Shown here: positions 1,533 through 21,708 of the stretch, piece after piece | Layout of the letters: the number at the start of each line of letters is the position of its first letter | Numbering within the stretch: position 1 is the stretch's first letter | Assembly (NCBI GenBank): GCA_025839675.1 | Contig: CP104013.1 | Span: 1,050,001 to 1,082,000 of the forward strand | Length of the DNA stretch: 32,000 bases | Source of the DNA: Candidatus Lokiarchaeum ossiferum | GTDB lineage: Archaea > Asgardarchaeota > Lokiarchaeia > Sigyniarchaeales > Promethearchaeaceae | Direction of reading: 5' to 3' | Translations under genes and position numbers: made by a program | The notes under the pieces: generated by a model | What the model was told of the DNA's origin: nothing | The model's database searches: none | What the model saw: the letters and a program-made list of their open reading frames with translations, nothing else

Positions 1533-1556
1533 AGTTTGACATTCCTTTTTTTTTTA

Positions 1557-4919: not shown

Positions 4920-4922
4920 TAT

Positions 4923-4928
4923 ATCACC
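4923..4928 (-). promoter_or_regulatory. Shine-Dalgarno-like GGTGAT upstream of permease paralog 1
   Basis: The reverse complement of 4917..4930 reads atGGTGATataATG. GGTGAT matches the usual archaeal/bacterial anti-SD complement (GGAGGTGAT). Confidence 0.4.
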
Positions 4929-5034
4929 ATTTTTGATTGAAAGACAATTCTTCTAATTGTTTCACAATAATCACTTATTTTGAAGGGGTAATTATTTGAT
5001 ATTTTCATATTTTCGTTGTACATGTTTTCATTTG

Positions 5035-8000: not shown

Positions 8001-8394
8001 ATGAACTCGCCCCATTTGGGTAAATATCCAGATTTTGACTATTATTGGTAAAGAAATAAATTTCACTCGAACGATATACGGACATCTGATAATAACGGTC
8101 AATTTTTAATGCTTCTTGAGCGTCTGTAATTTGAGTTATTTGATCTTCAAATCCAAAAATTGTTTCAGCAGAAGTGTTTCTAAATTCATGACTATTACCA
8201 TAATAACTGAAGGAATAATCAACTAATTCATTGATATTCGCCCTAATTATATAATTAGTATATGTATCTGAAAAATACGCAACGCCTGCAACCATACTTA
8301 GGGCAATACCTAAACCAATAATTATCAAATATGCGTTTTTCGTGGTCTTCCTCGCTTGTGAAAGATAATAATTTAAATGTCCGGTTTTCATCAT
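5035..8394 (-). CDS. Giant fused double MacB/FtsX-type ABC permease, paralog 2
   Basis: It has the same architecture as paralog 1 and aligns along its whole length. Shared strings include IEEFLLLRSKGTPQNMIRNQIL, KLHTNKLLSILGADSMEALYDEK, ALNMVRKKQYITTMFL and NQGVLLARGYGKKGVLKLLLTE, and the C-terminus KKNYTDYFHQF is identical. The track start at 8403 is a GTG that sits inside an SD-like GGGTGA (8400..8405). I therefore prefer ATG 8394, which lies 5 nt downstream of that SD (MMKTGHLNYYLSQ aligns with MGKGRLKYYASQ of paralog 1). Confidence 0.9.
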   Translation of the reverse strand: MMKTGHLNYYLSQARKTTKNAYLIIIGLGIALSMVAGVAYFSDTYTNYIIRANINELVDYSFSYYGNSHEFRNTSAETIFGFEDQITQITDAQEALKIDRYYQMSVYRSSEIYFFTNNSQNLDIYPNGASSFYGHTFNLYQVQENFYQTDSFSNFYTILDGTYPTSENEILIDVLFAQEMNLTLGKTYTIDLVGEGTNSGIFEWTQDGPELNSDLIFYNISDIKVVGIYGCLKDDNYQILGDYYDSRYLLDTKTESFEVQYNSFYDRDQSPFFTYYNISNVYGNSKFANFLVTAWNDFHVRLYRDQMLCASADYSKIDFQHISSTINEMQISNYILFDQLPMRYENYIYNQLLSVSYEIGFTRTVFQILNLPIIGFALFIGAFALKIEQKNRIEEFLLLRSKGTPQNMIRNQILVEGFFIGAIATLLGAILGIGVFFILRNILTKIFLSREIGLVLPFILTGRSVLTSFIVGTLLTQVASIISLVFISKLHTNKLLSILGADSMEALYDEKTIFKKHKDANITLEDTPFYSGNVVESSPHFLSDPALNNETSGKKRKKGLFRRKRSLYKDTMQSKEKKIRPFSYLIILLSLIPAIIFLLYISAAETNNDYFYWIIASIFMGGFAGLIILFIGAPLLLVFGIIRFVALEKPSRFAKFSKKISKIFLKRDSNLVALNMVRKKQYITTMFLVGVFISVLVFSNVTLNSIIRYDRVNTNIASGADLNLELPGSLLFNYDSADTFLEKDSPIQSGDDFTSFENALKNLNNSENESFINDVLTVQRKNTYGGYLEDQRYFLNLSKYLNIISEDHKDAISKDHFKKIQQTLDYNDNPDNSDLGIIVNPTFLEQNSVDVGESMLMDLDYYNPEDEDFVHERISVNIVAVSDLFPGILYRPDYFYYSTDQCILIDIDSLNLSSNIIYGSQVFQMIDLNYEIALNSTYIENQIWNVALDYDIPIGEFKYYDNSWDSVSLKNLDLANLSEVSGVYSIFYLDLIIIGIIIAIGIAILLVFLRKADKYNQGVLLARGYGKKGVLKLLLTEIAIVFSISIVSGLFSGGLQSVLLLQFYKIVSFNFNDIRLPIFFNPLDLLLLGLLIPILSIAIYLLVYYFETKKNYTDYFHQF

Positions 8395-8409
8395 TAGATT
8401 CACCCTGGT

Positions 8410-11400
8410 TTAAAATTTATGGAAGAATTTTGAAATATTCTGCCGGGATTCGATTAAAAAGGCCACATAGGAAATAATTAAAGATAATATCATAATTAAC
8501 CCGAGTATGCCGAATAGTTCACCTAGATTAGCATAAATTGGAAAATTAGTACTTTGATTTGCCACTTCAAGGTAATTTCCAACTTTTACAAAAATTGCGG
8601 AAAAGGAAAACCCGCAAAATAATCCAATGAGAATTCCAATTGTGAATATCACGATTAATTCACTAAGAATCAATTGCAATAACCCCTTTTTACCAAATCC
8701 CCTTGAGAGAAGGACCCCATTGAAGAATTTATTTTCTTTTTCTAGAGCCAAAATTAAAACTGCCAGCCCTATAGCAATTAAAATCCCTACAATAATGAAA
8801 TCAAAATATAAAACACCATATACACCCACTGTCCCTATAGTTGCCTTAAGTGAGACAGAATTCCAATTCTGATCATAAAATTCCATATGGTTGAACCTAC
8901 GAATGAATCCTTGAGTGATGTTAGCGATATGATCTTCAATTAATGATGAATTAGAAGTCAGTTCGGATGTGATATCAAATAATTGATAAATAGCATCTCC
9001 ATACATAATTTCAGGGGAACTATTAGCAAATTGTATATCGCAAGCAAGCATCGGTCGAGCAAACTGATTCACTCCAAATTTATGAAAAATTCCGGGTAAA
9101 ATTTCAATAGTTTTCAATAACTTAACCAATATTGTTGTTGAACGAACTTCTTCGGTTGAACTATTTATGAAACTAAAGGTAAAGTTGAACAAATCCCCTT
9201 CATTTTTGAGGTTGTAGGTCAGAAAATCTTGGTTAACTAACACACCGGGAGTATTATTTTCAGGATTTTTATTGTATTTTATAAGGGCTTGCATGTCCCT
9301 TCGAAATTGTCCACTAGGTAGCATTTTTTTATCTTCATCAATTATCTTCATATAATTTTCATAGTCAAAAAGGTAGGGTGTATAATTTCGAGAGGTAGAA
9401 TCAGGATTGTAGCATGTTACCATATTATTGACCATCGGATTCCCATCACTATAATTATAATTAAGGAAAGCATCTTCAAATTCAACAATATCCGACAAAT
9501 TCTCCATATACAAATTAACCCCTGAGAGTTCAGTTCGAACATCTGCCCCTATCTCAAGATTTGCATAGATATTTTCATATCGAGCGTTTGTATTCAAGTA
9601 AACGTTTGTGAAACAAAATAATGCGGTAAAAATTCCAATAATCAGGATAACAGTTTTATATTGCTTCCGTCTCACCATTTCAATGCCCACAAGAAACCCT
9701 CGTTCTTTTAAAAACCACTCAGATATTTTTTTAGAGAGATTTGCAAAGAAACTTGGTTTTTCTTTAGTAAAAAGTCGAATTACTCCTAAAGCAAAGAATA
9801 TCGGGGAAATTATAATGAATATTGTTAATACTGTTAGATTCTTTTTAAGATCAGCACTTAAAATAGCCAATTGATCAGAGGCTGATGGTAAAGATCCAAG
9901 ATAGATTAGTGCAAACAAAATTAAGGGAATCGTGGACAGAAGTATAAACGCATAGGAGAAATTAATGATTTTTGCTTCCTTCTCCTTTAGAGGATCCACA
10001 TAAAATGAAGTACCACTATCAGGTTCTCCTGAAGGAGCATTAAGTCCAGGTGAAGGATATGATTTTGTTTCTCGAACAAGTTGTCTTTGTAAATCTCTTT
10101 GTGAGTTGAAAAGATTGGTAGAATTCCATAAATTCCATTTCTTTTTTGGTTTTTTTGGTTTATCTTTTTTCTTTCTATCCGAGATTTTGGAGGGATCTTC
10201 ATCTGTAGAGATTTCCCAAGATTTTTTCCCAAATAGTGATCTTTCATCATAAATAGCATCCATTTCTTGAGAACCAATGGACGATAGCAATTCACTTACA
10301 GGCATTTTGATGACAAAACGAATGGCAATAGCGCTCCCTAAGAATGAAAGCAAAATACCAAAGAGGAAAGTATCCAAAATGGAATTCATACTTATTCGTA
10401 AAGCAACTAAGGAGGCAGATTTCATATCAAAGATTTCGATAAACAAACTACGAAAAAGGAAGAATCCTCCTGTCCCACATATCAAGCCCAATGCAGTAGA
10501 AAAAAAAGCAATAAATAGACTTTCAACGATGAATTGATTTCCTATCATCATTGGAGGTACCCCCTTACTTTTTAGAAGCAAAAACTCTTCCAAGCGGGAT
10601 TTTACTTCAGTTTTTCGAGCAAATGATCCCAATAATATGGCGGTCAATAAAATAGGAATATTCATTAATAGCAAAGTTGTTCTCACATAGTCAGTTTTTC
10701 CATAAAGTATGCGTAGAGCGGATTGTGTATAGTCTATAAATCTGTAATCGTTCGATATTTGATCCAATTGATTTCTGATAATGATATCTTCAGTTCGCAT
10801 CTTGTTTGCAAGAGAGTTCATATTGCTTAACTTGAAACTACCTCGAGAAATTATCCCTCCAACACAAATTCGAGATTCAATCAATTTTACCAAATCATTT
10901 GAATCCCACTCATTTTCAATATTATAAAAAAGATTTCGAAAATAGAACGATTTAGAATCTTTTATATAATTATAGTATGTTAAAATAGGAGCAGAATGAA
11001 TTTCTGCCGAAGAAAAAACGCCTGTTGTTTCATTAATATATGTTGGAAGAAGATTTGAGCTAAACTCAAAGACTGAAAACCGATAATTTTCCCGATTAGG
11101 TTTGAATATCCCAACAACAGTTGCATTTAAATTATACCCAAAAATTTGATCTTCAATAAAATCGGGCTGTTCATTTGGAATTGAATGATTTTCTAGATTG
11201 TCATATGCGTGGACACCGATTGCTTTTTCTCGATCAACACGAATATAAACGTTTGTGGTTTTAGATAAATTCATATTTAAATATTGAGCATATGCCGAAT
11301 CGATCAAAATTTCTCCAGGATTTTCCGGTGATCTTCCCTCAAGGATTGTGAAAAATTCTGAAAAACGATCATAGTGATAAAACTCAGAATCAAAAGCCCC

Positions 11401-11766
11401 CATGGAAAAGGGCAGTGTGTTTTGTGAGATATTATCAAATAAATCTACACCTTGAGTTGTAAAATAACTAAAATATGGAATATGATCAGGAGAATATTCA
11501 CTTTCTTCATAGAGATCATGGATGCGTTGCAATGTTCCGGGAATATTGTAAACAAGTGGAAGTTCAAAAGTATTTGAATTAAGCACCACTTCATAATCAA
11601 TAACATTATTTAATTCAATGTCAAACTTGTAGCGTTGATATGAATCAGAATAGTAACCTAACCCGGAGATCAAACTCAGAGTGATTGAAAATGCGATAAT
11701 TATTAAAATTGAACTCTTAACATTCCGCGTCCCTTGCGAGAGATAATATGTAAATCGATTTCCCAT
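8410..11766 (-). CDS. Giant fused double MacB/FtsX-type ABC permease, paralog 3 (most divergent)
   Basis: It has the same 4+2+4 TM layout. Supporting strings are GEILIDSAYAQYLNMNL, ATVVGIF, RLEEFLLLKSKGVPPMMIGNQFIVE, GIEMVRRKQYKTVILIIGIF and NGVLLSRGFGKKGLLQLILSE, with the C-terminus KFFHKF. The track start at 11862 adds 32 residues (MNSVLLLDNKIYITNCVYFCYSKLENTQRTIL) with no counterpart in the paralogs. That extension also covers a TTTATATA box. The internal ATG at 11766 (MGNRFTYYLSQG) aligns with the paralog N-termini. Confidence 0.87.
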   Translation of the reverse strand: MGNRFTYYLSQGTRNVKSSILIIIAFSITLSLISGLGYYSDSYQRYKFDIELNNVIDYEVVLNSNTFELPLVYNIPGTLQRIHDLYEESEYSPDHIPYFSYFTTQGVDLFDNISQNTLPFSMGAFDSEFYHYDRFSEFFTILEGRSPENPGEILIDSAYAQYLNMNLSKTTNVYIRVDREKAIGVHAYDNLENHSIPNEQPDFIEDQIFGYNLNATVVGIFKPNRENYRFSVFEFSSNLLPTYINETTGVFSSAEIHSAPILTYYNYIKDSKSFYFRNLFYNIENEWDSNDLVKLIESRICVGGIISRGSFKLSNMNSLANKMRTEDIIIRNQLDQISNDYRFIDYTQSALRILYGKTDYVRTTLLLMNIPILLTAILLGSFARKTEVKSRLEEFLLLKSKGVPPMMIGNQFIVESLFIAFFSTALGLICGTGGFFLFRSLFIEIFDMKSASLVALRISMNSILDTFLFGILLSFLGSAIAIRFVIKMPVSELLSSIGSQEMDAIYDERSLFGKKSWEISTDEDPSKISDRKKKDKPKKPKKKWNLWNSTNLFNSQRDLQRQLVRETKSYPSPGLNAPSGEPDSGTSFYVDPLKEKEAKIINFSYAFILLSTIPLILFALIYLGSLPSASDQLAILSADLKKNLTVLTIFIIISPIFFALGVIRLFTKEKPSFFANLSKKISEWFLKERGFLVGIEMVRRKQYKTVILIIGIFTALFCFTNVYLNTNARYENIYANLEIGADVRTELSGVNLYMENLSDIVEFEDAFLNYNYSDGNPMVNNMVTCYNPDSTSRNYTPYLFDYENYMKIIDEDKKMLPSGQFRRDMQALIKYNKNPENNTPGVLVNQDFLTYNLKNEGDLFNFTFSFINSSTEEVRSTTILVKLLKTIEILPGIFHKFGVNQFARPMLACDIQFANSSPEIMYGDAIYQLFDITSELTSNSSLIEDHIANITQGFIRRFNHMEFYDQNWNSVSLKATIGTVGVYGVLYFDFIIVGILIAIGLAVLILALEKENKFFNGVLLSRGFGKKGLLQLILSELIVIFTIGILIGLFCGFSFSAIFVKVGNYLEVANQSTNFPIYANLGELFGILGLIMILSLIISYVAFLIESRQNISKFFHKF

Positions 11767-11823
11767 TAGTATTGTCCTTTGAGTGTTTTCTAATTTTGAA
11801 TAACAAAAATATACACAATTTGT

Positions 11824-11831
11824 TATATAAA
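11824..11831 (-). promoter_or_regulatory. Candidate archaeal TATA box (TTTATATA) for an internal promoter driving the permease/ATPase genes
   Basis: The minus strand reads gataacaagaTTTATATAacaaatt. The box ends 57 nt upstream of ATG 11766, which would place a TSS about 30 nt upstream of the start codon. This is a motif match only. Confidence 0.35.
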
Positions 11832-11867
11832 TCTTGTTATCAAGTAAAAGAACAGAATTCATATTTT

Positions 11868-11907: not shown

Positions 11908-14900
11908 TTATTTGTCTGATTTTGGTTTTAATTCTTTAATTTGAGGGCGATGCTTGAACGTAATATCTTTGGGCTTTTTTTTTGTAAGAGCATCGGGTTT
12001 CAAATGAGGTTTCTCAAGTCTGATCGTATTTTCTTCATTTTGAACCAAATCAGAAGAAGGTTTGGGTACATCCGAAGTTTTCGCTAAAACAGGTGATGTT
12101 TTGGGAGATTTACTTGTGTCTGGGACCACTTTAGTTATTTTAGGACTTTCATCCGGCGCTTTATAGGGGGCAATAGTATCCCCTGAAGGTAAAACTAAAG
12201 AGGTAACGTCCGATTTAGTTGTAAACCCAGATTTTCGATTTCCTTTTGAAATATTGGATTTTAACTGTCCTTGAACCTTCCCAGGTAAAATATCCTTGAC
12301 AAGATGAATGTAAGACCCCATAAATAAATCCTTCCGTGATTTTGTTGAAATATTGAACGATTTTCCGCGCTTCATTGATCGCTTAAGTTTTTTAATATCA
12401 CGAACAATCTTTGGATATTTGTAGTACTTTTGATAAGCAATAAAAGAAGAAGTTAACCCCGCTAATGCGATACCCATAGTATAAAAAGCCCAAGACGGAA
12501 TGGAATCAGTGGGTGGAGAAATAACATTCAAAGTAATTGTAAACTGATCAAACTTATAGTTTAACCCTTTGTACACAGTGATTATGATTTTATGAATTCC
12601 TTCGGGTAAATTATTTAAGAGTATAGTATAAACGTGGTTTTCATCTTCCAAAAGCGTTCCCGACCCTAAAGCAGACTGATATTCAACCAAACATCCAGAT
12701 ATCAGGCCCCCATTGTCAAGATCTTCAACAATTACACCTAAATCAAAATCTTCACCTGGCCGTAAAGAATAAGAACTATTATAATGTTGAGAAGTAATAT
12801 TCGTACTTATAGGTCTTATTTTTATCTGGAAATTCTTTGTAAATTGGGCATAATTAGCTTTTTGAGACAACACAGTTATAAAGTGAACCCCCAATCCCAT
12901 TTCGGTAGTATTTAATTGAAAATAATAATGGCTCCCCGAGGATCTATCTGAAAATTGACTTGAATTAAGTCCAACCAATGAAAAAGTAACCGCTGAAATA
13001 ATATTTCCAGATTCCGAATCATATAAAGCCCCAGAAATATTTAAATAATGGGTTATGGGAACTTCAACTTGGGTAAACATAGAATAATCAGAATTATCAA
13101 CAAAAACACCTAAGTTCACACTACGAGGTGTTATTTGTACTTCAATCAATTCGTTGTATTCTAGATGCTTAGGAGACGAAGCTACGAGGAAAATATAATA
13201 AATTCCTATGCTGAAATTAGTTGTATCAACAATGAATTCATGTTTTGTTGAAATCTGTCGATATGAAGAAGAGGCACCAGTCAATGTTACCGCTGCATCT
13301 AAAACGACATCAAATGTCACAGAATCATAAACTTGTGCAGTTAAATTCAAAGTTGAATTGTATTCGAGGTCAATATGAGGAGATAACGTTGAATTGATCC
13401 CATTCAAAAAAATATCAAAATATGAATCTCTCCCTAATACTTTGATCCGGATTTGTTGCGAAGACTGTTCATAATTGGATTTTCCCAGATATACTGTAAT
13501 TAAATGGGTTCCTAATCCTATTTTGGAAGTATTTAATAGATATTGGTATCTATTCCCAATCTCTGAAAATTCAAAGGTGGAATCATCAATATTATTACCT
13601 ACTAAAGAAATATTTGCATTGATTAAAGGTTCCTTACTTTCAAAATCATAATACCATGAAGTAATGTTCAATTGTGTATCATAGGGAACTTCTATAATTG
13701 GTGATTCAGTTAAATTGATATCATTGGAGAAGAGATCACAATAAGTGGGTCTTCCAATAATATTTATTTCTATTATCAGAGATGGTGTGTTATACCAAGT
13801 CCCTTCATTATCCGGAGTAATTTCTAACAAGTAGGACAACCCTGCAGAAACAATAGAAGTATTGATATCAAATTCATACAATCCATCGCCCAGAAAGAGA
13901 ACAGGACTATGATTATCGACCCAATTTAGAGAAAACGCACTATTATTGATTGAAACAACTGGAGAACTTTCAGAATAATTTAGAGTGATCGTTTTCGTGG
14001 TATTCCAAATGACATCATAATTATTTTTGCCATCAAGTGTGTTTAAAGTGGTTTCAATCGGTTCCCGTGACTCTATCACATTATACCATACAATTAAATT
14101 AATATTATCAAGGAAAATAGAGACATTATTTACAAGATAGAATTCATCGGCAATATACAATAGAATAGAAATGGATGTGTTTTCACTAAATTTATTTTTA
14201 TCCAAAAACAATGAAGAAACATCAAATCCATCCCCTTCATTAGTAGATTGAATTTCTGTAGTCATTGAAGATAAGAATATTTGTTCTGAAAGATAATTAT
14301 CATTTATGCCTATTTGAATTCGAGAATTTGGAGTAAGGTATCCTATTTGTTCGCTTATATTATAGTCAAAACTTAAGGTTGCATTAACAATTTCAATTTC
14401 TTTATCTAAATACTCACTATTATTTAATTTATTAGCACTTTGAACAAGATCTAAAGTAGAAAACTGATCTATTCTTTTTTCATAACTAAATTCTAAACTA
14501 AAGTTTTTAATTAAAAGAGAATCCCAAATATCTTGATCACTCCACCAATTATCTTCACACCAAATTCTTATTCCCAGCGTTACTGTGAAATGAAAATAAT
14601 CCTTGCTTAATACTGATGTAAGATAGATAATTAATGCCTCTTCAGATGTTGCATTAAAAACTAAATCAAGTAAATCATTGGAGCCAGTATCAGAGCCTAA
14701 TTCGACAGTTTGATAAAACGCAACTTCGTAAGTATCATTTTTATCAAGATCAGATAGTAAAACATAAAATCTAGCATAGTCACCCGTCCCAAATTGAGGG
14801 GAAATAGGATCGTGATCACTTCTATCACTCGTATCATCCCCTGGGCATTCAATTCCACCCATCCACCCATCAGCAGCATCAGAAACGGAGGCATTAATTG

Positions 14901-15480
14901 TAGTTCTTACAGAAGCACTAGTAATGCGATATTCAGACATATTAACATCAGTTGTTAAATTTTTTTCCCAGTGAACACTCGGTGATTGATTCGCATCTTC
15001 ATCCCATGCATGAGAAACCTCCAACATATCTTCTGAATTGAAAAGATGGGAATCAGGAAAAACTGGAAAATTTGGATTACTTTTTTCTAGCCAATCAATA
15101 TTTGAGAATGATGGATTTATATCCGAGAAAGTATTGGAATTTCCAATTATTGTGGAATTCGAAACTTCGGTGGAAATAGCACCATCTAAATCAAATAGAT
15201 CTCCGGTTTTTTCATAATTCCATGGACTATCGCCAAAATCTGTAGTAAAAGATGGATCATTAATTAATTGTTTCGAATAAAGCGTGCTATTTTTTAGTAT
15301 AACAGAGGAGTTTGGATTATTAAATTTATTATCATTGTTATTTCCAGTATTTTTATATTCTTTAATTGTATTCTGTGTAACCACTTGACCAATAATGCAA
15401 ATCATCAATATTGCCAAGGTGATTTTTTTTTTGGGAGAATTCATTTTTATTTTTCCACCTCTAAAAGCTTGTTTTTCCAT
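11908..15480 (-). CDS. Giant type-I membrane surface protein: signal peptide, ~430-aa N-terminal domain, four to five Ig-like ~100-aa repeats, C-terminal TM anchor and a 174-aa K/P/S-rich cytoplasmic tail
   Basis: The N-terminus ...MNSPKKKITLAILMICIIGQVV is signal-peptide-like. I counted at least ~30 N-x-S/T sequons by eye in the ectodomain. Repeats span residues ~475-988 (recurring ...Y.F.LNT...G.G.H.ITV...NY....F.I.I...). The TM is WAFYTMGIALAGLTSSFIAY (res ~996-1016). ATG 15480 has GAGGT 7 nt upstream but overlaps the upstream gene by 34 nt. The alternative ATG 15444 lies 2 nt after the upstream stop and has GAGGTGG upstream. Confidence 0.85.
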   Translation of the reverse strand: MEKQAFRGGKIKMNSPKKKITLAILMICIIGQVVTQNTIKEYKNTGNNNDNKFNNPNSSVILKNSTLYSKQLINDPSFTTDFGDSPWNYEKTGDLFDLDGAISTEVSNSTIIGNSNTFSDINPSFSNIDWLEKSNPNFPVFPDSHLFNSEDMLEVSHAWDEDANQSPSVHWEKNLTTDVNMSEYRITSASVRTTINASVSDAADGWMGGIECPGDDTSDRSDHDPISPQFGTGDYARFYVLLSDLDKNDTYEVAFYQTVELGSDTGSNDLLDLVFNATSEEALIIYLTSVLSKDYFHFTVTLGIRIWCEDNWWSDQDIWDSLLIKNFSLEFSYEKRIDQFSTLDLVQSANKLNNSEYLDKEIEIVNATLSFDYNISEQIGYLTPNSRIQIGINDNYLSEQIFLSSMTTEIQSTNEGDGFDVSSLFLDKNKFSENTSISILLYIADEFYLVNNVSIFLDNINLIVWYNVIESREPIETTLNTLDGKNNYDVIWNTTKTITLNYSESSPVVSINNSAFSLNWVDNHSPVLFLGDGLYEFDINTSIVSAGLSYLLEITPDNEGTWYNTPSLIIEINIIGRPTYCDLFSNDINLTESPIIEVPYDTQLNITSWYYDFESKEPLINANISLVGNNIDDSTFEFSEIGNRYQYLLNTSKIGLGTHLITVYLGKSNYEQSSQQIRIKVLGRDSYFDIFLNGINSTLSPHIDLEYNSTLNLTAQVYDSVTFDVVLDAAVTLTGASSSYRQISTKHEFIVDTTNFSIGIYYIFLVASSPKHLEYNELIEVQITPRSVNLGVFVDNSDYSMFTQVEVPITHYLNISGALYDSESGNIISAVTFSLVGLNSSQFSDRSSGSHYYFQLNTTEMGLGVHFITVLSQKANYAQFTKNFQIKIRPISTNITSQHYNSSYSLRPGEDFDLGVIVEDLDNGGLISGCLVEYQSALGSGTLLEDENHVYTILLNNLPEGIHKIIITVYKGLNYKFDQFTITLNVISPPTDSIPSWAFYTMGIALAGLTSSFIAYQKYYKYPKIVRDIKKLKRSMKRGKSFNISTKSRKDLFMGSYIHLVKDILPGKVQGQLKSNISKGNRKSGFTTKSDVTSLVLPSGDTIAPYKAPDESPKITKVVPDTSKSPKTSPVLAKTSDVPKPSSDLVQNEENTIRLEKPHLKPDALTKKKPKDITFKHRPQIKELKPKSDK
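12517..14058 (-). repeat. Protein-level tandem repeats (~100 aa, Ig/beta-sandwich-like) within the surface protein; diverged at DNA level
   Basis: Units cover approximately residues 475-576, 577-684, 685-786, 787-890 and 891-988. Recurring features are an N-glycosylation sequon near each unit start, a central aromatic-rich strand (YQYLLNTSKIGLGTHLITVY / HYYFQLNTTEMGLGVHFITVL / HVYTILLNNLPEGIHKIIITVY) and a terminal 'I.I.V/I' strand. Confidence 0.6.
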
Positions 15481-18131
15481 ATTTTCAACCTCTTGGTTAG
15501 TATTTTCTTCTTAAAATCATCCAAAAAAGCATTACGTCTTAAGTCATCCCGCCAAGTGCAAATATCAGATACAGATTTTGAAGAAATGCCACTTTTTTGA
15601 GCAATACCATATAATTGTTCCAATCCAAGTATTGTATCATCAATTTTTGTTTCATCGAGAGATTTTAAGATGTTATTAAAAACTATTTTAACCTTTTTCT
15701 CATCAACTTTCTCAGTTTTTTTAGGTTGTTCCTTATCGTTAGATACATTGAGCTTTTCTCCTGTTTTTCCTCCAATATTATGATTGTCATTTAACTTATT
15801 TTTTTGGTTTTCTGGGTTAATTTTAGAAGCGGGTGAAATATTATCTCCAATCGACATTGAAGGAGTTGTTTGTTTTTCCAATTCTTGCTTTTTTTTATGT
15901 TGTTGGAATTTTAACGCTGGAGAAAAGGGATCCACAATTGGCATTGAAGGTTTTGCTGGTTTTTCCAATTCTTCCTTTTTTTTTTGTTGTTGATATTTTA
16001 ACGCCGGAGAAAAAGGATCCACAACTGGTATCGAAGAAGGGGCTTTTTTAGGAACTTTCTGCTCTGTTTTTACAATTTCTGAAAATTTCTTATAGGGAAT
16101 AAAGGATTTTTCATTAGATGAAGAATTTTTAGTAATGTTCTGAGGGGGCTTATCTTGACTTATATTTTTAGAACTGGTTGTAGATAGAGATTGATTTTTA
16201 TCTTCAGGTGTATCCTCAAAAGTTTCTCTCATGGATTTGATAGCTGCAGAGCTTAAAGTTCTTTTATCCGCATCGGATGTAAAAATATGGCTTTCTGGCG
16301 GTTCAATACTCAAAACATTATTAACAATTGGAGGTGCTGAAGCACCGGATGAAACGGGCGCTTCCGCCATTATGGGATGATTTGACAAAACCTTCGATTT
16401 TATCAATGGATTAGGTTTTTTACCCACAAATTTTGCAATTTCCGTCACTGGAAATCCATCTGGAAGGTTTTTGCTTGAATTACGCCAAGCATCTTCCAAA
16501 ATAGGAACAAAAATTTTGATATGCTCTGGTAATATACTCCCAATACCTGCAACCTCCAAAGGTGATTGAGTTTGTTTTTCATCCGAATTGACAATACCTA
16601 AAATAATCTCCTCATAATCACGATTAATAGCCCACAAGTTCTTCAATTTACGATGTCGATAGTCAATATTATGACGGGAATCAAAATAAGCAAGTTTTTC
16701 CTTTTGATTTTTGTCTTGTTTGTTAATATTGCAACAGATTCGCACATTTATATGATTTCGGATTTTTTTAAAGGGTTCAATGTCAATATCGGAAAGCGAC
16801 GGGGCTAGAATTAATAATCGCATTTTTGCACGTAATATTCCGTCATCTAATTGGGCTATCATACCTTCAGGAGTGCGAACAAACCAAACATCCTTCATTG
16901 TGAAATTAATCGATCCTTTGGACACTTCCCAAAATTCTTTGATAGAACTAATATTCATATCAAGCTGATCAACAATTTTCCCTAGAATATCATCAAGCGT
17001 AATAACCACTTTTTCAGAAAAAGTGTTTTTAAGCATTCCAAAGGAGCCCATAACTGAATCGGAGATATTAAGTATTTTATCTTGAGTATCAGAAAGAGTA
17101 TCATCAAATTGAGTTAATACCGTAGAAAAGGAATTTTGAAGACCACTACTTACTTTACCCGCATTTTCAGAAATGAGCCCAATTTCTTTAGTCAATTGAT
17201 CGAGCAGATATTTGAATTTGGATTCAAAAGTTTTCTGAAAATCGTCTCGAATTTTCTCCATTTGAGTATCAATACTTTTTTGAACAATATCTTCGACTGT
17301 TTTCACAATCACACCGAGTTGAAGCTTTTGCAAATTTTTCGATATTTTTTGCTTAAGCAATTCAAATTGATTAAATAATGAGATATAATGCTCATCTACA
17401 AGCCCAATACTCTGATCACGTAAAGAATTTATCCCAGTCACAATCTTCTGTTGATTTTGCAAGTGAACTAATGATTCATCAAGTAAATCACGCTGATCAG
17501 AAATATCTTTAGATAAGTTCATTTTAATATCAGAGAGATATTTGACAAAATCGAGTAAATTTTGGACACCTTGCGCTTTGTCTTCAAAATTTAAGAAGGA
17601 AGTATGTAAATCTGTTGGAGTAGAGATTTGAATCCCGCGGATCATCTGAGTAAATTTTTCAAGTTGATCTATTAAAGCAGCATAGGGAGGTAATGCTTGA
17701 TAATAAATTGTGGCACCTTGGATTTCTTTAAACAATCCTTTTTGTAAGAAGCGTCCCGCAATATTTTTAGCACGCTCCATGGGAATACTTCCAAGAATTG
17801 CGATCTCTCCCAAAGATATGGGTCCCTTGCCTGATGTGTTAAGGAAAATTTCAATTTCTTCTTCAGAAAGATCGATTGAGCGTAATACTTTGCGCGATAT
17901 ATCCTCATTTTTTTTGTTATTTTGATCTATTGATTCCACAATTTCAAAGGATTCCACTTTCAATTTATTATTGATCTGAACTATTAAATTATGGGATGGT
18001 GCTCCGTGAATTGAATTCAAAGTGTACGGAAAACTATCTTTCTGGACAGAATCAAGATTCAAATCAAATTCAATATCCTGTAAGCATTTTTTGCATCGAA
18101 ATATGATTTTTTTGGAATTATTTTTTGCCAT
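15447..18131 (-). CDS. Multidomain cytoplasmic protein: CxxC/HxxxxH knuckle, TrmB-like winged helix, ~250-aa helical region, TrmB-C/PLD-like domain, ~240-aa disordered region with 29-aa repeats, C-terminal helical domain
   Basis: IDLSEEEIEIFLNTSGKGPISLGEIAILGSIPMERAKNIAGRFLQKGLFKEIQGATIYYQALPP matches the TrmB N-terminal wHTH pattern. No TM segments are present. The track start at 18140 is GTG and I prefer ATG 18131 (MAKNNSKK...). The upstream gene's stop is at 18142..18144, so the two genes abut. Confidence 0.8.
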   Translation of the reverse strand: MAKNNSKKIIFRCKKCLQDIEFDLNLDSVQKDSFPYTLNSIHGAPSHNLIVQINNKLKVESFEIVESIDQNNKKNEDISRKVLRSIDLSEEEIEIFLNTSGKGPISLGEIAILGSIPMERAKNIAGRFLQKGLFKEIQGATIYYQALPPYAALIDQLEKFTQMIRGIQISTPTDLHTSFLNFEDKAQGVQNLLDFVKYLSDIKMNLSKDISDQRDLLDESLVHLQNQQKIVTGINSLRDQSIGLVDEHYISLFNQFELLKQKISKNLQKLQLGVIVKTVEDIVQKSIDTQMEKIRDDFQKTFESKFKYLLDQLTKEIGLISENAGKVSSGLQNSFSTVLTQFDDTLSDTQDKILNISDSVMGSFGMLKNTFSEKVVITLDDILGKIVDQLDMNISSIKEFWEVSKGSINFTMKDVWFVRTPEGMIAQLDDGILRAKMRLLILAPSLSDIDIEPFKKIRNHINVRICCNINKQDKNQKEKLAYFDSRHNIDYRHRKLKNLWAINRDYEEIILGIVNSDEKQTQSPLEVAGIGSILPEHIKIFVPILEDAWRNSSKNLPDGFPVTEIAKFVGKKPNPLIKSKVLSNHPIMAEAPVSSGASAPPIVNNVLSIEPPESHIFTSDADKRTLSSAAIKSMRETFEDTPEDKNQSLSTTSSKNISQDKPPQNITKNSSSNEKSFIPYKKFSEIVKTEQKVPKKAPSSIPVVDPFSPALKYQQQKKKEELEKPAKPSMPIVDPFSPALKFQQHKKKQELEKQTTPSMSIGDNISPASKINPENQKNKLNDNHNIGGKTGEKLNVSNDKEQPKKTEKVDEKKVKIVFNNILKSLDETKIDDTILGLEQLYGIAQKSGISSKSVSDICTWRDDLRRNAFLDDFKKKILTKRLKIWKNKLLEVEK
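15777..16040 (-). repeat. In-frame tandem repeat, 87-nt period (2 good copies plus 1 degenerate), encoding PS.P(I/V)VDPFSPALK(Y/F)QQ.KKK.ELEK
   Basis: It is directly visible on the plus strand: tttttccaattcttgc...ggatccacaattgg (from 15873) recurs as tttttccaattcttcc...ggatccacaactgg (from 15960). The offset is 87 nt, or 29 aa. The third copy (PSMSIGDNISPASKINPENQ) is decayed. Confidence 0.85.
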
Positions 18132-18141
18132 TTCACTCACT

Positions 18142-19410
18142 TTAAAATTCTATCACTTCATTGTATGTAGAAACTAATAAATCCAGAGCAATATTTGCAA
18201 CTTCTTTGGTGATGGGAGAATATAAAGAAAACTCATCGATAGAACCCATCTTCATGATTGTTCGATCGGAAATCTTATTCAAGATTTCTTCCGGAAAAAT
18301 TGTAATCGGGGTAATCTGAGCTAACAAGCAAATCCACTCCCTGTTTGCTTTATCAGTTAAAATCTTAATAATCTTGGCTTCTTTCAGTTTTGCTAACACT
18401 TTGTCCATCTCAGAAAATTCGGACAAAATATGGGGTATTTTTTTCACAGGAATTGCACGAGTCTGCAATAATGCGAGGAAATCATATATATCGGGATCTA
18501 AAAGAAAATCTGCTAATAATTCACTTTCTTCGTTTATTTTTTCAGTAGGATTGTAATTTTGGTAAAATTTATATAGCTCTTGAAGGTATTGCGTCCCCAC
18601 ATACGAGTTATGTTTCATATCTTCAACTAATTGAATTGGAGGAGAGCGAACTAAAGCAATATCTTTGACTAAAAATAAGAATTCACCTTCCCCTCTCAAT
18701 TTACCCGTCTTTTTGTTAAATTCACCCCGTGCCCAATCCCTTCGGATTAAATTGAGCTCCGTGAATGGTTTTAACAATAAATCGGTATTTATATTTCGCT
18801 TAATTTCAAGCATTTTTTGATTAAAAATCACTCGAGAAATTGGACCTTCGCGAAGAATTCTCAAGCACTCCATTCGCTCGAAACTTGAATAAATCAAAGC
18901 GGCTTTTTGTTCTTTGGATAAGTTAGATAGACGTTCGATTTGAAAAATCGCAAATTTCATCTCATTAAGAAGTTTATTTTCGATCCCTTCTACCACCCGA
19001 AAGTCATTTAAATTAGCAGTTATGAGAGTCTCAAAAACGGGCATCATTCGTTCGGTCATATGATAGAAAATTGGTTCAAACAATTCCACTTCACTTTCAC
19101 GTTCGAATAAATTGATTATCAAATATTGAGATTCATCGGTTTCTTGGTGATAATAGGATAAACATTTATATGGTGCTTCTTTCAATCGACCTACAATATA
19201 ATTTTTAATCTGACGACCCTTTTTAGTCATTATTCCTGTAGTATGATTATAGAAAAGGCGAAATTTATCATTATTTGATAGAAGATCTTCGAGATTATCA
19301 TCTTGATGAAAATTCGATAGTTCAGATACAATTTCTTCAAACTTTGGTTCAATTTCTCCCTCGTCATCTTGATTAATCTTAAATTGATAAACTATAATTC
19401 CAACAACCAT
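18142..19410 (-). CDS. Hypothetical cytoplasmic protein, first gene of the cluster; possible longin/roadblock-like N-terminal domain plus winged-helix-like C-terminal region
   Basis: The 422-aa ORF starts with ATG and has no TM segments. N-terminal pattern MVVGIIVYQF...FRLFYNH...CLSYYHQETDESQYLIINLFERESEVELFEPIFYHMTERM. This resembles the b-b-a-b-b-b-a layout and the 'YL.I.....E...AF.FL..I...F' signature of longin-type domains. That comparison is by eye only. Confidence 0.75.
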   Translation of the reverse strand: MVVGIIVYQFKINQDDEGEIEPKFEEIVSELSNFHQDDNLEDLLSNNDKFRLFYNHTTGIMTKKGRQIKNYIVGRLKEAPYKCLSYYHQETDESQYLIINLFERESEVELFEPIFYHMTERMMPVFETLITANLNDFRVVEGIENKLLNEMKFAIFQIERLSNLSKEQKAALIYSSFERMECLRILREGPISRVIFNQKMLEIKRNINTDLLLKPFTELNLIRRDWARGEFNKKTGKLRGEGEFLFLVKDIALVRSPPIQLVEDMKHNSYVGTQYLQELYKFYQNYNPTEKINEESELLADFLLDPDIYDFLALLQTRAIPVKKIPHILSEFSEMDKVLAKLKEAKIIKILTDKANREWICLLAQITPITIFPEEILNKISDRTIMKMGSIDEFSLYSPITKEVANIALDLLVSTYNEVIEF

Positions 19411-19849
19411 TTTATTTTCCCCATATTAGTTACAATTTTTTTCACTCTTACTATTCCCATTCTAGCTTCTCATATAACATTAAATTAAATTTGGTTTTAT
19501 TCTTTTCATGTTTTTCATGTGAAATTGTGGAAATATTGTGATTTGATATTTCTAAAAGGAAATCTAAAATAAATGACATTATAGAGGGAATTCAAAGATT
19601 ATTAGCTGTTTTCTGAAATTATAGAACTTGTTTTCCACGTTAAAGCCATTTATTAACAGTTTGCTCTAAGTTGGAGTGCCTTCCTAACCACTACATTTTC
19701 ATCTTCACATTAACATATACGACTATACAATTATGACTATATAAAAGTTGAGATTCAATTTTGTCTGAACATGGAAAATTTTAATTTCACTATGAGTTTA
19801 TGTGGATTATCTGAATAGCATTTAAATTATATGGAGAGAAAAGAAATTC
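19411..19849. promoter_or_regulatory. 439-nt divergent intergenic region holding the promoters of the cluster (minus) and the histidine phosphatase gene (plus)
   Basis: This is the longest non-coding stretch in the window, and no ORF or GC-rich structured RNA is evident. It contains an exact tandem 9-mer ttttcatgt x2 (19503..19520) and several TATA-like strings (gttatatg / aaatttaattta on the minus strand at 19471..19492). Confidence 0.5.
19821..19828 (+). promoter_or_regulatory. Candidate TATA box (TTTAAATT) about 25 nt upstream of ATG 19850, implying a leaderless or near-leaderless mRNA
   Basis: The sequence reads gcaTTTAAATTatatggagagaaaagaaattcATG. The spacing equals the usual archaeal TATA-to-TSS distance. 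This is a motif match only. Confidence 0.3.
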
Positions 19850-20563
19850 ATGTCAAATCTTGCAGATATTCATTGGAACCGTGATGTTCTGAATATAATT
19901 TCCCAATCAGAAGACTTAATACCAGATTTACCCGCAATTCTCATGATCCGCCATTCAGCACGAGAAGAACCAAAGGATCTACTAAATGCAATCAATGCGC
20001 CATTAACAGAACTCGGGAAAAAATTAGCTATTGAATTTGGGGATAAACTTAATATTTCAAAACAATATCGTATTTTTCATAGCCCCAAACCTCGATGCAA
20101 AAATACAGCACTTAAGATTCAAGAAGGTCTTGATGATAACCAGGTTAAAACCGAATTCAAAGGAGAATTAGATTCATTAATCCGTATAAATAGTGATCGA
20201 AACATATTTGCAAAATATTGGAATAGGGATGGGGAACATCGCTTTGTAGATTATTGGTTTAGTGGATTTTATCCAAAATGGGAAATTGAACCTGCAATTG
20301 TGGTTGCCCAACGCACAGCCAAGGATATTATGCATAATTTTCAAGAAATCGAATCAAATAAGGTAGATTTGTATATTTCCCACGATTACTCAATTCTTGT
20401 TTATTTACGGTATTGGTGTGGAATATTAGCAACCAAAGAATGGATCAATTATTTAGGTGGATTTTGGCTACAATTTCAAAAAAACCACATTTTTCTATTG
20501 TTTGGTGGTAATAAATACCACATCCCCTATCCTGCATGGTGGATCTGGAGACCAACACAATAA
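19850..20563 (+). CDS. Histidine phosphatase superfamily protein (phosphoglycerate-mutase-like branch 1)
   Basis: The N-terminal catalytic motif is LMIRHSAREE (an RHG-type motif with Ser in place of Gly). A second conserved His lies in YISHDYSI. The size of 237 aa is typical for the family. Confidence 0.75.
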   Translation: MSNLADIHWNRDVLNIISQSEDLIPDLPAILMIRHSAREEPKDLLNAINAPLTELGKKLAIEFGDKLNISKQYRIFHSPKPRCKNTALKIQEGLDDNQVKTEFKGELDSLIRINSDRNIFAKYWNRDGEHRFVDYWFSGFYPKWEIEPAIVVAQRTAKDIMHNFQEIESNKVDLYISHDYSILVYLRYWCGILATKEWINYLGGFWLQFQKNHIFLLFGGNKYHIPYPAWWIWRPTQ

Positions 20564-20565
20564 AA

Positions 20566-21693
20566 TTACGATTCATACCATTTGTCAAATTCTGAATGAA
20601 ATATATCCCAATCTTCTATAAATTGACGCAAAAATGATTGATTGAGGCAGTAAACAGTTCTTCCCATTTCTTTTTCCGTTATAACTATTTGCCTTTCAGA
20701 TAAAAAGCGAATTATTTTATAAACAGTGTGCTGAGATTTCCCCAGAATCATTTCCAATTCCAAAATACCAAGTTTTTGATCTTTAAGAGAATCTAAAATC
20801 AAAAATCTATCGAAATTTCCCAAGCATTCTGTGAATGATAAGATATATGAAGAAAAATCAATATTCACATCATTCGGGGTTGGTTCTTTATGCACAAATT
20901 CAGATTTACGATTAATAATTTTGGAATTTTCAGTGTTTTTGGTTCCTAATGAAGGAGGAAATTCGTTAAAAGATAATAGCTCTGCAATGGAATTTTCAAA
21001 AGATATAGTTTTGATTGAAAATAGAATATTTTTGTTGAACCCATGAGAATCTTTGATTGATATCACTTTACTATCAAATTTCCCGAAAAATTTTATATAA
21101 TCAAATTTTATAGTTTCATTGTCAGAAATCTGTTTGGAAAAAAGTTCATCAATTAATTGGTTTGCCGTCCACTTGAGGATAATTTGCTCTTCAAGACCAA
21201 CCATAGTTGAAAACACAGAATTAATATATTTAATAATCCCAGTTTGAATTACAACTAATCCAACACGATTTTCATCTGCAATTGTTTGAAAATTGAAAGC
21301 CTTCTGCCTTCTTTCTACATTTTTCCTATGTTTATGTAAGGCCATTTCGATTGTTGTAAACAAATCTTTTTCTTTAAAAGGTTTATTCAGATATCCCAGA
21401 GGTTCTGCATTTTTAGCGTGGTTTAATGTTTCTTCATCATTGAAAGCGGTTAAAAATATAATTGGAATATTATAGTAAGAGTAAATATATGCCGCAGCAT
21501 CCGTACCTTTCATCTCACCTTTTAACATAATATCCATGATAACAATATCTGGTTGAAATTCATAAGCCTTTTTGATTGCTTCTTGACCTTCTTTTGCAAT
21601 TCCAACAACCTCAAATTCATTGTTCTCGAGAGTCATTTTAATATCGAGGGCAGTAATTTGTTCATCTTCAACAATTAATACTTTAGATTTCAT
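20566..21693 (-). CDS. Response regulator: REC receiver + PAS-like domain + C-terminal ArsR/TrmB-like winged helix
   Basis: The REC hallmarks are VEDE (acidic pocket), DIVIMD (phospho-acceptor about D54), FLTAF and NKPF. The middle PAS-like segment reads ENRVGLVVIQTGIIKYINSVFSTMVGL. The C-terminal wHTH reads LGILELEMILGKSQHTVYKIIRFLSERQIVITEKEMGRTVYCLN. The gene starts 15 nt downstream of the kinase gene. Confidence 0.92.
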   Translation of the reverse strand: MKSKVLIVEDEQITALDIKMTLENNEFEVVGIAKEGQEAIKKAYEFQPDIVIMDIMLKGEMKGTDAAAYIYSYYNIPIIFLTAFNDEETLNHAKNAEPLGYLNKPFKEKDLFTTIEMALHKHRKNVERRQKAFNFQTIADENRVGLVVIQTGIIKYINSVFSTMVGLEEQIILKWTANQLIDELFSKQISDNETIKFDYIKFFGKFDSKVISIKDSHGFNKNILFSIKTISFENSIAELLSFNEFPPSLGTKNTENSKIINRKSEFVHKEPTPNDVNIDFSSYILSFTECLGNFDRFLILDSLKDQKLGILELEMILGKSQHTVYKIIRFLSERQIVITEKEMGRTVYCLNQSFLRQFIEDWDIFHSEFDKWYES

Positions 21694-21708
21694 TGTAAAT
21701 ACCTATTA

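Follow-up and report, generated by a model that had tools for sequence, protein, structure and literature searches.

Which role can be assigned to a protein that joins a TrmB-like winged helix to an exceptionally long helical region, a disordered region and further domains at both ends? This question is raised by a long open reading frame (ORF) in Candidatus Lokiarchaeum ossiferum, located in a 32,000-nucleotide (nt) stretch of contig CP104013.1 (assembly GCA_025839675.1, positions 1,050,001 to 1,082,000 of the forward strand), hereafter called the window. An initial annotation, made from the sequence alone, had divided the encoded protein into six consecutive segments (a Cys/His knuckle, a TrmB-type winged helix-turn-helix (wHTH), a long helical region, a TrmB-C/PLD-like domain, a low-complexity region and a helical C-terminal domain) and had interpreted it as a greatly expanded TrmB derivative. 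All six segments are present, and their order is common to more than 100 homologues. We are highly confident that the protein represents a Lokiarchaeia family derived from a TrmB/TrmBL2 frame and equipped with a hairpin stalk, a PLD-like domain that looks like a pseudo-enzyme, a flexible linker and a four-helix end domain.

15447..18140, minus strand: the whole ORF, 897 amino acids (aa) from GTG 18140 or 894 aa from ATG 18131

The database copy of the protein (894 aa, 100% identity) starts at ATG 18131. Because this copy begins there, a Shine-Dalgarno-like GTGAGTGA is found directly 5' of this codon and the stop codon of the upstream gene is 10 nt away, ATG 18131 is probably the true start rather than GTG 18140. 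Residue numbers used here count from GTG 18140 and are shifted by +3 relative to a protein starting at ATG 18131.

Searching the target against 5.8 billion proteins resulted in 187 homologues at E ≤ 1e-3, most of them 720-750 aa in length, which shows that the segment pattern did not arise by chance. DSAG12_03151 of Promethearchaeum syntrophicum is among them and is ~55% identical to the target. Conservation was analyzed in a family alignment of 109 homologues drawn from many assemblies, the closed P. syntrophicum genome among them, and the same alignment was used for an AlphaFold2 model with a mean predicted local distance difference test (pLDDT) of 67.7. The conservation profile is high for residues 1-558, collapses in the linker and is high again in the last 82 residues. 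As conservation resumes past the linker, the domain order is, judged from the alignment, ancestral. The initial annotation had named a fusion of two genes by an assembly or frameshift error as the finding that would overturn it, and the unusual length together with 257 aa of low-complexity linker before the last domain could be read in this way. However, the succession of core, linker and C-terminal domain is kept in all 109 homologues and the closest relatives span 96-99% of the query, so that this explanation is refuted for practical purposes and its probability negligible.

The segments of the protein are listed from the N- to the C-terminus, together with the evidence used:

17934..18116, minus strand: five-strand, zinc-ribbon-like beta domain, residues 9-69, with C16-x2-C19 / H45-x4-H50 (conservation, AlphaFold2 strands)
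17685..17924, minus strand: TrmB-type wHTH, residues 73-152, ending at the invariant ALPPYAAL junction (Pfam, profile search, Foldseek, conservation)
17325..17684, minus strand: stalk arm 1, residues 153-272 (AlphaFold2 helices, periodicity of 3.55, arm-length covariation)
17295..17336, minus strand: stalk tip, residues 269-282, with near-invariant N269 L270 K272 L273 x L275 G276 V277 ... V282 (conservation, helix break)
16914..17306, minus strand: stalk arm 2, residues 279-409, with a hendecad-like periodicity of 3.65 (AlphaFold2 helices, periodicity, arm-length covariation)
16467..16910, minus strand: PLD-like domain, equivalent to the N-subdomain of TrmB-C, residues 411-558, the most conserved segment (Foldseek, conservation, profile search, PF11495 in relatives)
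15705..16466, minus strand: disordered K/S/P-rich linker, residues 559-812 (composition, AlphaFold2 disorder)
15848..16036, minus strand: 87-nt tandem repeat inside the linker, 2.2 copies with 85% matches (repeat search)
15450..15704, minus strand: four-helix C-terminal domain, residues 813-897, with near-invariant L840 and W888 (conservation, AlphaFold2)

The TrmB ancestry was apparent from fold comparison. In a Foldseek search of the model against the PDB, TrmBL2 ranked first (E 4e-8 to 2e-6), followed by NucT, vaccinia F13, Nuc, 2f5t (2.5e-5), 3qph (3.8e-5), FAM83, Zucchini and PLD2/3. The wHTH spans residues 73-149 in the model, and the linking helix of the TrmB frame begins at residue 153, directly after the ALPPYAAL junction. 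The target alone matches PF01978 over residues 86-152 with E = 0.024 and 14.9 bits, below the cutoff of 25.6, while 22 of 40 family members match this domain with a best value of 9.4e-7. A family profile of residues 70-200 aligned with residues 9-99 of Pyrococcus furiosus TrmB (3qph, E 0.0098), covering the wHTH and the start of the helix. The winged helix, described as clear in the initial annotation, is supported by the fold and by the family-level Pfam matches, with the target itself remaining sub-threshold. The full-length target had no match among the PDB sequences; with the full-length profile, compositional matches to apolipoprotein and designed helices were obtained, and TrmB appeared at E 0.044.

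An exhaustive profile search with the PLD-like domain collected 254 clusters at E ≤ 1e-3. All named distant relatives are from Asgard archaea (Odin, Njord, Hel and Atabeyarchaeia), with the exception of P0368, which is labelled Candidatus Deferrimicrobium sp. The distant Asgard relatives consist of an N-terminal TrmB wHTH, helical regions and a PLD-like C-terminal domain, with total lengths of 450 to 1308 aa. Some of them exceed the PF01978 threshold (P0284, 42.9 bits), and their C-terminal domain matches positions 2-136 of PF11495 at E 2e-4 to 2e-3; P0323, a paralogue without wHTH, reaches 22.4 bits against PF11495 (cutoff 22.2). Taken together, the fold matches to TrmBL2, 2f5t and 3qph and the Asgard relatives matching PF01978 and PF11495 bear out that the protein is an expanded TrmB/TrmBL2 derivative, whose frame combines a wHTH with a dimerisation helix and a PLD-like domain. 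It is of the TrmBL2-like subtype, since it lacks the part of PF11495 that forms the beta-barrel. Several Loki/Hel paralogues of 270-330 aa (P0319, P0320, P0323, P0367 and P0331) contain a heptad coiled coil and the PLD-like domain and have no winged helix.

The postulated expansion is real, but it is not diffuse: it is made up of a zinc-ribbon-like domain at the N-terminus, a hairpin stalk with symmetric arms, and the linker with its C-terminal domain. For the stalk, AlphaFold2 predicted helices at residues 153-227, 231-272 and 279-409. The sole break in the long helices, at 273-278, falls at the near-invariant LxLGV tip motif, and conservation is higher around the tip than along the arms. Arm lengths were determined for 130 homologues, anchored on the PPYAA junction, the L.LG[VIL] motif and the D[IV]WF strand. 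Arm 1 varies from 104 to 213 aa and arm 2 from 118 to 229 aa, with a correlation of r = 0.985, and seven matched classes can be distinguished (104/118, 125/141 as in the target, 147/160, 160/179, 169/186, 191/207 and 213/229), which step together by ~21-22 aa. As both arms gain or lose these ~21-22 residues jointly, we strongly infer that the stalk is an antiparallel, folded-back hairpin of ~255 aa. From ~125 residues per arm, its length is estimated at ~18 nm. Since the hairpin brings the chain back, the wHTH would be gathered at one end together with the zinc-ribbon-like and PLD-like domains, and the LxLGV tip would be located at the other.

A helical region of ~250 residues with heptad-like character had been proposed here. 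Helices and extent were confirmed, but the hydrophobic periodicities of the two arms point to a mixed heptad/hendecad repeat and not to a pure heptad. Homology to apolipoproteins and perilipins (apolipoprotein A-IV, helical-repeat families) was considered and rejected, as these matches track the hendecad-type spacing of hydrophobic residues, and the two arms are paired with one another.

The PLD-like domain contains an alpha/beta domain of the PLD/TrmB-C fold at residues 418-553 (pLDDT > 90). Its resemblance to the TrmB C-terminal domain, already noted in the initial annotation, was verified by the fold matches to TrmBL2 (4e-8) and 2f5t (2.5e-5), and proteins of the PLD fold (NucT, Nuc, Zucchini, PLD2/3, F13 and PssA) were matched at E 3e-6 to 1e-3. 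The folded part ends at ~553-558 and is followed by disordered sequence; the beta-barrel sugar-binding subdomain (PF11495 ~137-233) is absent. On the sequence level, a profile of the domain retrieved none of the PDB sequences even at E ≤ 10, and there was no direct Pfam match. The predicted order of strands and helices equals that of Nuc element for element, and the Nuc sequence used was checked against 1byr. In a direct hhalign comparison with Nuc, 33 columns were aligned (E 0.068), comprising the N-terminal SPEG...AK motif only, and the mapping of the HKD motif therefore rests on the order of secondary structure elements. By this order, and not by a computed alignment, the strand with H94-x-K96-x4-D101 in Nuc would correspond to K-N501-L-W503-A-I-N-R-D508 in the target.

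Under this mapping, the domain looks like a pseudo-enzyme, in which the catalytic His and Lys would be replaced by Asn and Trp. The alternative is an active PLD-family phosphodiesterase or nuclease that is guided to nucleic acid by the wHTH. Such an enzyme would be in line with the fold matches to NucT, Nuc, Zucchini and PLD3, with the SPEG...AK motif in common with Nuc and with the many invariant polar residues of the domain (R467, R495, D508, E510, S535, E539 and K542, with H540 conserved in at least 90% of the members). It is nevertheless very unlikely: besides the His nucleophile and the Lys, the mapped strand order also lacks the GSxN of the catalytic HxK(x)4D(x)6GSxN pattern on the strand after N501-x-W503-x4-D508; H540-x-K542 is found in the last helix of the model, away from the catalytic strand; and no significant sequence match to any PLD enzyme was obtained. 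The invariant residues of the domain (D417, K439, R467, R495, E510, S535, E539, K542 and E549) may point to a conserved ligand or interface, possibly for dimerisation as in other PLD-fold proteins.

At the N-terminus, H50 is invariant and C16, C19 and H45 are each conserved in at least 90% of the 109 homologues. The AlphaFold2 model contains five strands (E9-15, 22-28, 39-45, 50-56 and 62-69) and places the two ligand pairs at the beta1-beta2 and beta3-beta4 turns. Judged from this arrangement, the domain looks like a zinc ribbon with two knuckles, using C2H2 instead of C4 ligands. The possible metal knuckle of the initial annotation is in agreement with this, and so is its remark on the spacing: C-x2-C-x25-H-x4-H on separate beta-hairpin turns differs from the classical C2H2 finger (C-x2-4-C-x12-H-x3-5-H, beta-beta-alpha). 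A Pfam search with ten isolated N-terminal domains returned noise only, including noise-level zinc-finger matches. Weak EhbP matches in 15 of 40 full-length members did not recur in these ten isolated domains.

The low-complexity region was confirmed as K/S/P-rich and was modelled as disordered between residues 560 and 810. With 257 aa, the linker of the target is the longest of all 109 homologues (median 60). Its 87-nt repeat encodes a 29-aa unit (PSxPxVDPFSPALKxQQxKKKxELEK), which suggests a recent lengthening of the disordered region in this lineage. The helical C-terminal domain proved to be a conserved four-helix domain; its helices span residues 814-896 with a pLDDT of ~90 and are kept in the family.

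To what extent is the family found outside the Lokiarchaeia? In a scan of one genome per GTDB species, a relative is encoded in 156 genomes. Two complete genomes are represented in the homologue list with one hit each, and one metagenome-assembled genome (MAG) carries two loci. The record titles of family members refer to Promethearchaeota, the NCBI name of the Lokiarchaeota phylum, and also to Thor-, Odin-, Hermod- and Hodarchaeota. However, the proteins from MAGs titled Hod-, Odin-, Thor- or Hermodarchaeota share 86-95% identity with one another or with proteins from Promethearchaeota-titled ones, while the P. syntrophicum protein is 40% identical to its nearest relative among these differently labelled MAGs. 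Judged from these identities, some of the phylum labels in the public JBHL* records must be wrong. Near-identical intergenic DNA is also common to differently titled MAGs (L019, L025, L040, L049, L059, L084 and other JBHL* records). An Asgard-wide distribution of the core family was dropped for the same 86-95% identity. Because the differently labelled proteins are nearly identical, we trust a Lokiarchaeia-wide distribution alone, and by this reading of the records the core family is solidly documented in Lokiarchaeia only.

The genomic context of the gene was compared across 79 related loci.

18142..19410, minus strand: partner gene, 422 aa, longin-like domain and two ArsR-like winged helices (structure model, fold matches, neighbourhood)
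11908..15480, minus strand: type-I membrane glycoprotein, 1190 aa (ORF list; homologues in 55 of the 79 loci)
19480..19494, minus strand: CCAAATTTAATTTAA, 84 nt 5' of the partner's ATG, matching the palindrome TTAAATT-T-AATTTAA (motif search)

In the window, the partner gene stops 1-10 nt ahead of the start codon of the target. It is located directly upstream of the target on the same strand in 74 of the 79 loci; in at least three of the four partner-less loci the target lies at a contig end. Its model (pLDDT 86.7) consists of a longin-like domain at residues 1-131 (beta-beta-alpha-beta-beta-beta-alpha) followed by two ArsR/SmtB-like winged helices. Fold matches of the partner are weak but consistent and include a Loki Roadblock-Longin protein (best E 0.028), TRAPP, SMCR8/C9orf72, GATOR1, FLCN and ArsR-type regulators. 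The partner family has no Pfam domain and no match to NPR2/NPR3, and its named members are all from Asgard archaea.

The second conserved neighbour is the surface protein. The 1190-aa glycoprotein has a signal/anchor, an NxS/T-rich ectodomain, a C-terminal transmembrane (TM) helix and a charged tail of ~170 aa with the juxtamembrane segment SRKDLFMGSYIHLVKDILPGK and the C-terminal segment KDITFKHRPQIKELK. It probably starts at M13 (15444), 2 nt past the stop of the target, and not at 15480. Its homologues are found downstream and co-directional in the Lokiarchaeum/Promethearchaeum clade, whereas one to four divergent paralogues are located upstream elsewhere. The family as a whole is type-I and rich in NxS/T sequons, and besides the C-terminal TM helix its members have a charged tail, 90-195 aa in length, with conserved motifs. 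The juxtamembrane helix of the tail carries a motif resembling [ST]R[ED]xxFxxxYxxELxK[TS]xKFLKGxP, and the C-terminal motif is LIEKSLEKKEELDKLV in 18 of 85 proteins and I[RT][YF]x[RH][KR]Px[IV] in the Lokiarchaeum/Promethearchaeum clade.

Upstream of the partner gene, the palindrome TTAAATT-T-AATTTAA occurs at -87 to -91 from the partner start in 21 of 70 related loci. In the window, the only match within 32 kb is the one at 19480-19494, at -84. Many loci (L020, L034, L040, L049-L052, L059 and others) contain a ~45-nt element, GGTTAAATTTAATTTAATAnATTACTTAAGAAATAATTATAAG, at a fixed distance 5' of the partner, which holds two palindromes, TTAAATT-T-AATTTAA and CTTAAG; the window keeps the first one only. 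The palindrome may be either an operator or an element of the core promoter. A scan of 19411..19849 for bacterial-type promoters and terminators, together with a repeat search, was uninformative. A regulon-wide operator was rejected, as the element is restricted to the region in front of the partner gene.

The initial annotation had also considered a role as DNA-binding regulator of its own gene cluster. This is not backed by conservation: in the same orientation, 441-11862 on the minus strand encodes three giant FtsX-type permeases (1150, 1122 and 1120 aa) as well as an ABC ATPase that carries a zinc-ribbon-like segment at its C-terminus, but a permease homologue was found in none of the 79 related loci and the ATPase in three, whereas the conserved neighbours are the partner and the surface protein. 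As the permeases are missing from the related loci, the FtsX part of the operon would be specific to this lineage. On the other side, a gene of the histidine phosphatase family (19850-20563, plus strand) is divergent from the operon and is also found near the module in four Promethearchaeum loci. The adjoining region 20566-24684 (minus strand) encodes a PAS-rich histidine kinase of the HisKA_2 type (991 aa) together with a response regulator, and related loci conserve neither gene. Genes for small GTPases are found ~1-9 kb from the target or a distant relative, possibly by chance, as Asgard genomes carry many of them; examples are a protein with Gtr1/RagA and MMR_HSR1 domains in P. syntrophicum (L001, 21444-22232) and Arf-like GTPases in locus L005 (4783-5439 and 8453-9238).

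Based on these data, we tentatively favor a dimeric DNA-binding factor with a regulatory or architectural role that acts together with its partner. Dimerisation would be mediated by the PLD-like domain and/or the stalk, and DNA would be contacted by the wHTH. The longin and double-wHTH partner, translated from the same operon, would act jointly with it on their own operon and on the linked surface-glycoprotein genes, in a regulatory or an architectural manner. The stalk tip and the C-terminal domain may serve as docking sites, e.g. for the partner or for the cytoplasmic tails of the glycoproteins. This proposal draws on the TrmB/TrmBL2 frame, the two ArsR-like winged helices of the partner, the palindrome at a fixed distance and a glycoprotein linkage that outlasts gene rearrangement.

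Several observations weigh against DNA binding. The net charge of the wHTH is negative (mean -2.2), its recognition helix contains the conserved acidic residues E122 and E123, and K or R is present at the wing tip in just 24% of the members. In the alignment, the invariant residues of the wHTH look structural and not DNA-contacting, and the most conserved region of the protein is the PLD-like domain and not the wHTH. Judged from the wHTH-less Loki/Hel paralogues, a module of coiled coil and PLD-like domain would work without DNA binding. Furthermore, the CTTAAG part of the upstream element was not found in the window, and the TTTCTTAAGTA/palindrome element occurs directly in front of the partner only and does not precede the distal surface-protein paralogues (1-2 of 49).

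The acidic wHTH, the wing without a conserved basic residue and the wHTH-less paralogues would fit a cytoplasmic protein that acts as a scaffold or adaptor and makes no contact with DNA. Here, winged helices would serve as protein-protein modules, as they do in ESCRT-II and GATOR1, the tip and/or the C-terminal domain would bind the glycoprotein tails, and the longin partner would provide a connection to small-GTPase signalling or trafficking. A hairpin with a conserved tip is a design typical of interaction platforms, and the longin-like domain of the partner matches folds of Roadblock-Longin, TRAPP, SMCR8/C9orf72, GATOR1 and FLCN proteins. The conserved tail motifs of the glycoproteins and their linkage through changes in gene order are in agreement with such a scaffold as well. 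In addition, the partner shares its domain order with NPRL2/NPRL3, for which an architecture of a longin domain with at least two wHTH domains behind it has been reported (PMC5681675). These longin matches are weak, however, and divergent gene pairs are equally a classic layout of regulator and target. To our knowledge, all characterized proteins with the succession wHTH, helix and PLD-like domain, i.e. TrmB and TrmBL2, bind DNA, and it is these that top the fold matches. We regard the scaffold as somewhat less likely than the DNA-binding factor, but as a strong competitor to it.

A third possibility concerns the genome as a whole: the protein could be a global nucleoid organiser, which binds DNA non-specifically like TrmBL2 and bridges or spaces it with its stalks, much as the arms of SMC/Rad50 do. 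The top structural match is TrmBL2, the sugar-binding barrel is absent in both proteins and the poorly conserved recognition helix would fit non-specific binding. The presence in 156 species representatives, with a single hit in each of the two complete genomes, indicates a wide occurrence in the lineage, and the conserved hairpin tips could pair tip to tip. In contrast, the wHTH has an acidic net charge, a motor such as an ATPase is missing, and neither the tight operon with the longin gene nor the linkage to surface proteins is predicted for a general chromatin protein, which makes this role improbable.

A more speculative combination, to which we assign a low probability, would unite the two-gene module and the type-I glycoproteins in a Lokiarchaeal head-stalk-tail complex for signalling or tethering. 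The tip and/or the C-terminal domain would sit on the conserved glycoprotein tails, the partner would act as a GTPase-linked switch and the TrmB-like head would reach DNA or another cytoplasmic target. If true, this complex would be a prokaryotic outside-in pathway, assembled from components that serve trafficking and nutrient signalling in eukaryotes.

Family members are named in the databases as hypothetical, 'helix-turn-helix domain-containing' or 'sugar-specific transcriptional regulator TrmB', and a full-text literature search found no description of the family and no experimental data. NCBIfam and PADLOC gave no match for the target, the partner or the surface protein, and a role in a defence system is accordingly not supported. 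Few cultured organisms are as closely related to eukaryotes as the Lokiarchaeia, and the majority of the conserved genes specific to this lineage lack an assigned role. The family illustrates the conversion of a simple archaeal regulator frame into a large protein of many domains, with a stalk of tunable length. Cloneable members are available from cultures of both Lokiarchaeum ossiferum and Promethearchaeum syntrophicum, and allow us to ask whether Asgard winged-helix/longin proteins act on DNA or as protein scaffolds, and how surface proteins are connected to the cytoplasm.

How does the protein compare with known systems? The single-HKD proteins of the PLD fold (Nuc 1byr, NucT 6ehi, Zucchini 4ggj and the DUF1669 domain of FAM83, 5lzk) have the same beta-alpha-beta-alpha-beta-alpha-beta4-alpha topology, with target-normalised TM-scores of 0.5-0.6. 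Under the mapping described above, without catalytic His, Lys and GSxN, the target domain would resemble the inactive FAM83 and TrmB. The likeness to the signalling hairpins of methyl-accepting chemotaxis proteins (MCPs) and to SMC/Rad50 arms is an analogy of design only, consisting in the antiparallel hairpin, the matched insertions and deletions in both arms and the most conserved stretch at the tip. Matched arm indels and a conserved tip are known from the MCP length classes and the Rad50 hook. Neither the target nor the family showed a sequence or Pfam match to MCPsignal, SMC or Rad50, and, unlike these proteins, the target has no ATPase head, no transmembrane segment and a partly hendecad repeat. 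The partner has the order of longin domain and wHTH in common with NPRL2/NPRL3 of GATOR1, with weak fold similarity.

The closest systems are the archaeal regulators themselves. TrmB, the sugar sensor of Pyrococcus and Thermococcus (3qph, 2f5t; PF01978 and PF11495), aligns with the target wHTH over its residues 9-99, and the alpha/beta domain of the target superposes on the N-terminal subdomain of the TrmB sugar-binding domain (2f5t, E 2.5e-5). TrmB has in addition the C-terminal beta-barrel (PF11495 ~137-233) that is missing in the target. This barrel supplies most of the sugar contacts. The coiled coil of TrmB is one short helix, whereas that of the target is ~7-fold longer and folded back, and the target has extra domains at both termini. 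TrmBL2, a chromatin protein and global repressor of the Thermococcales (5bpd, 5bpi, 5bqt and 5box), is like the target in its wHTH, helix and barrel-less PLD-like domain. Its chains comprise ~260 aa in contrast to the 894-897 aa of the target and have no zinc-ribbon-like N-domain, no ~255-aa hairpin stalk, no disordered linker and no four-helix end domain; furthermore, the wHTH of the target is acidic, and sequence similarity is detectable for the wHTH alone. We know of no longin/wHTH partner gene for TrmBL2. What is new in the Lokiarchaeal family is thus the combination of a TrmBL2-type frame with a zinc-ribbon-like domain, a hairpin stalk of tunable length with a conserved tip, a tethered end domain and the pairing with a longin/wHTH gene.

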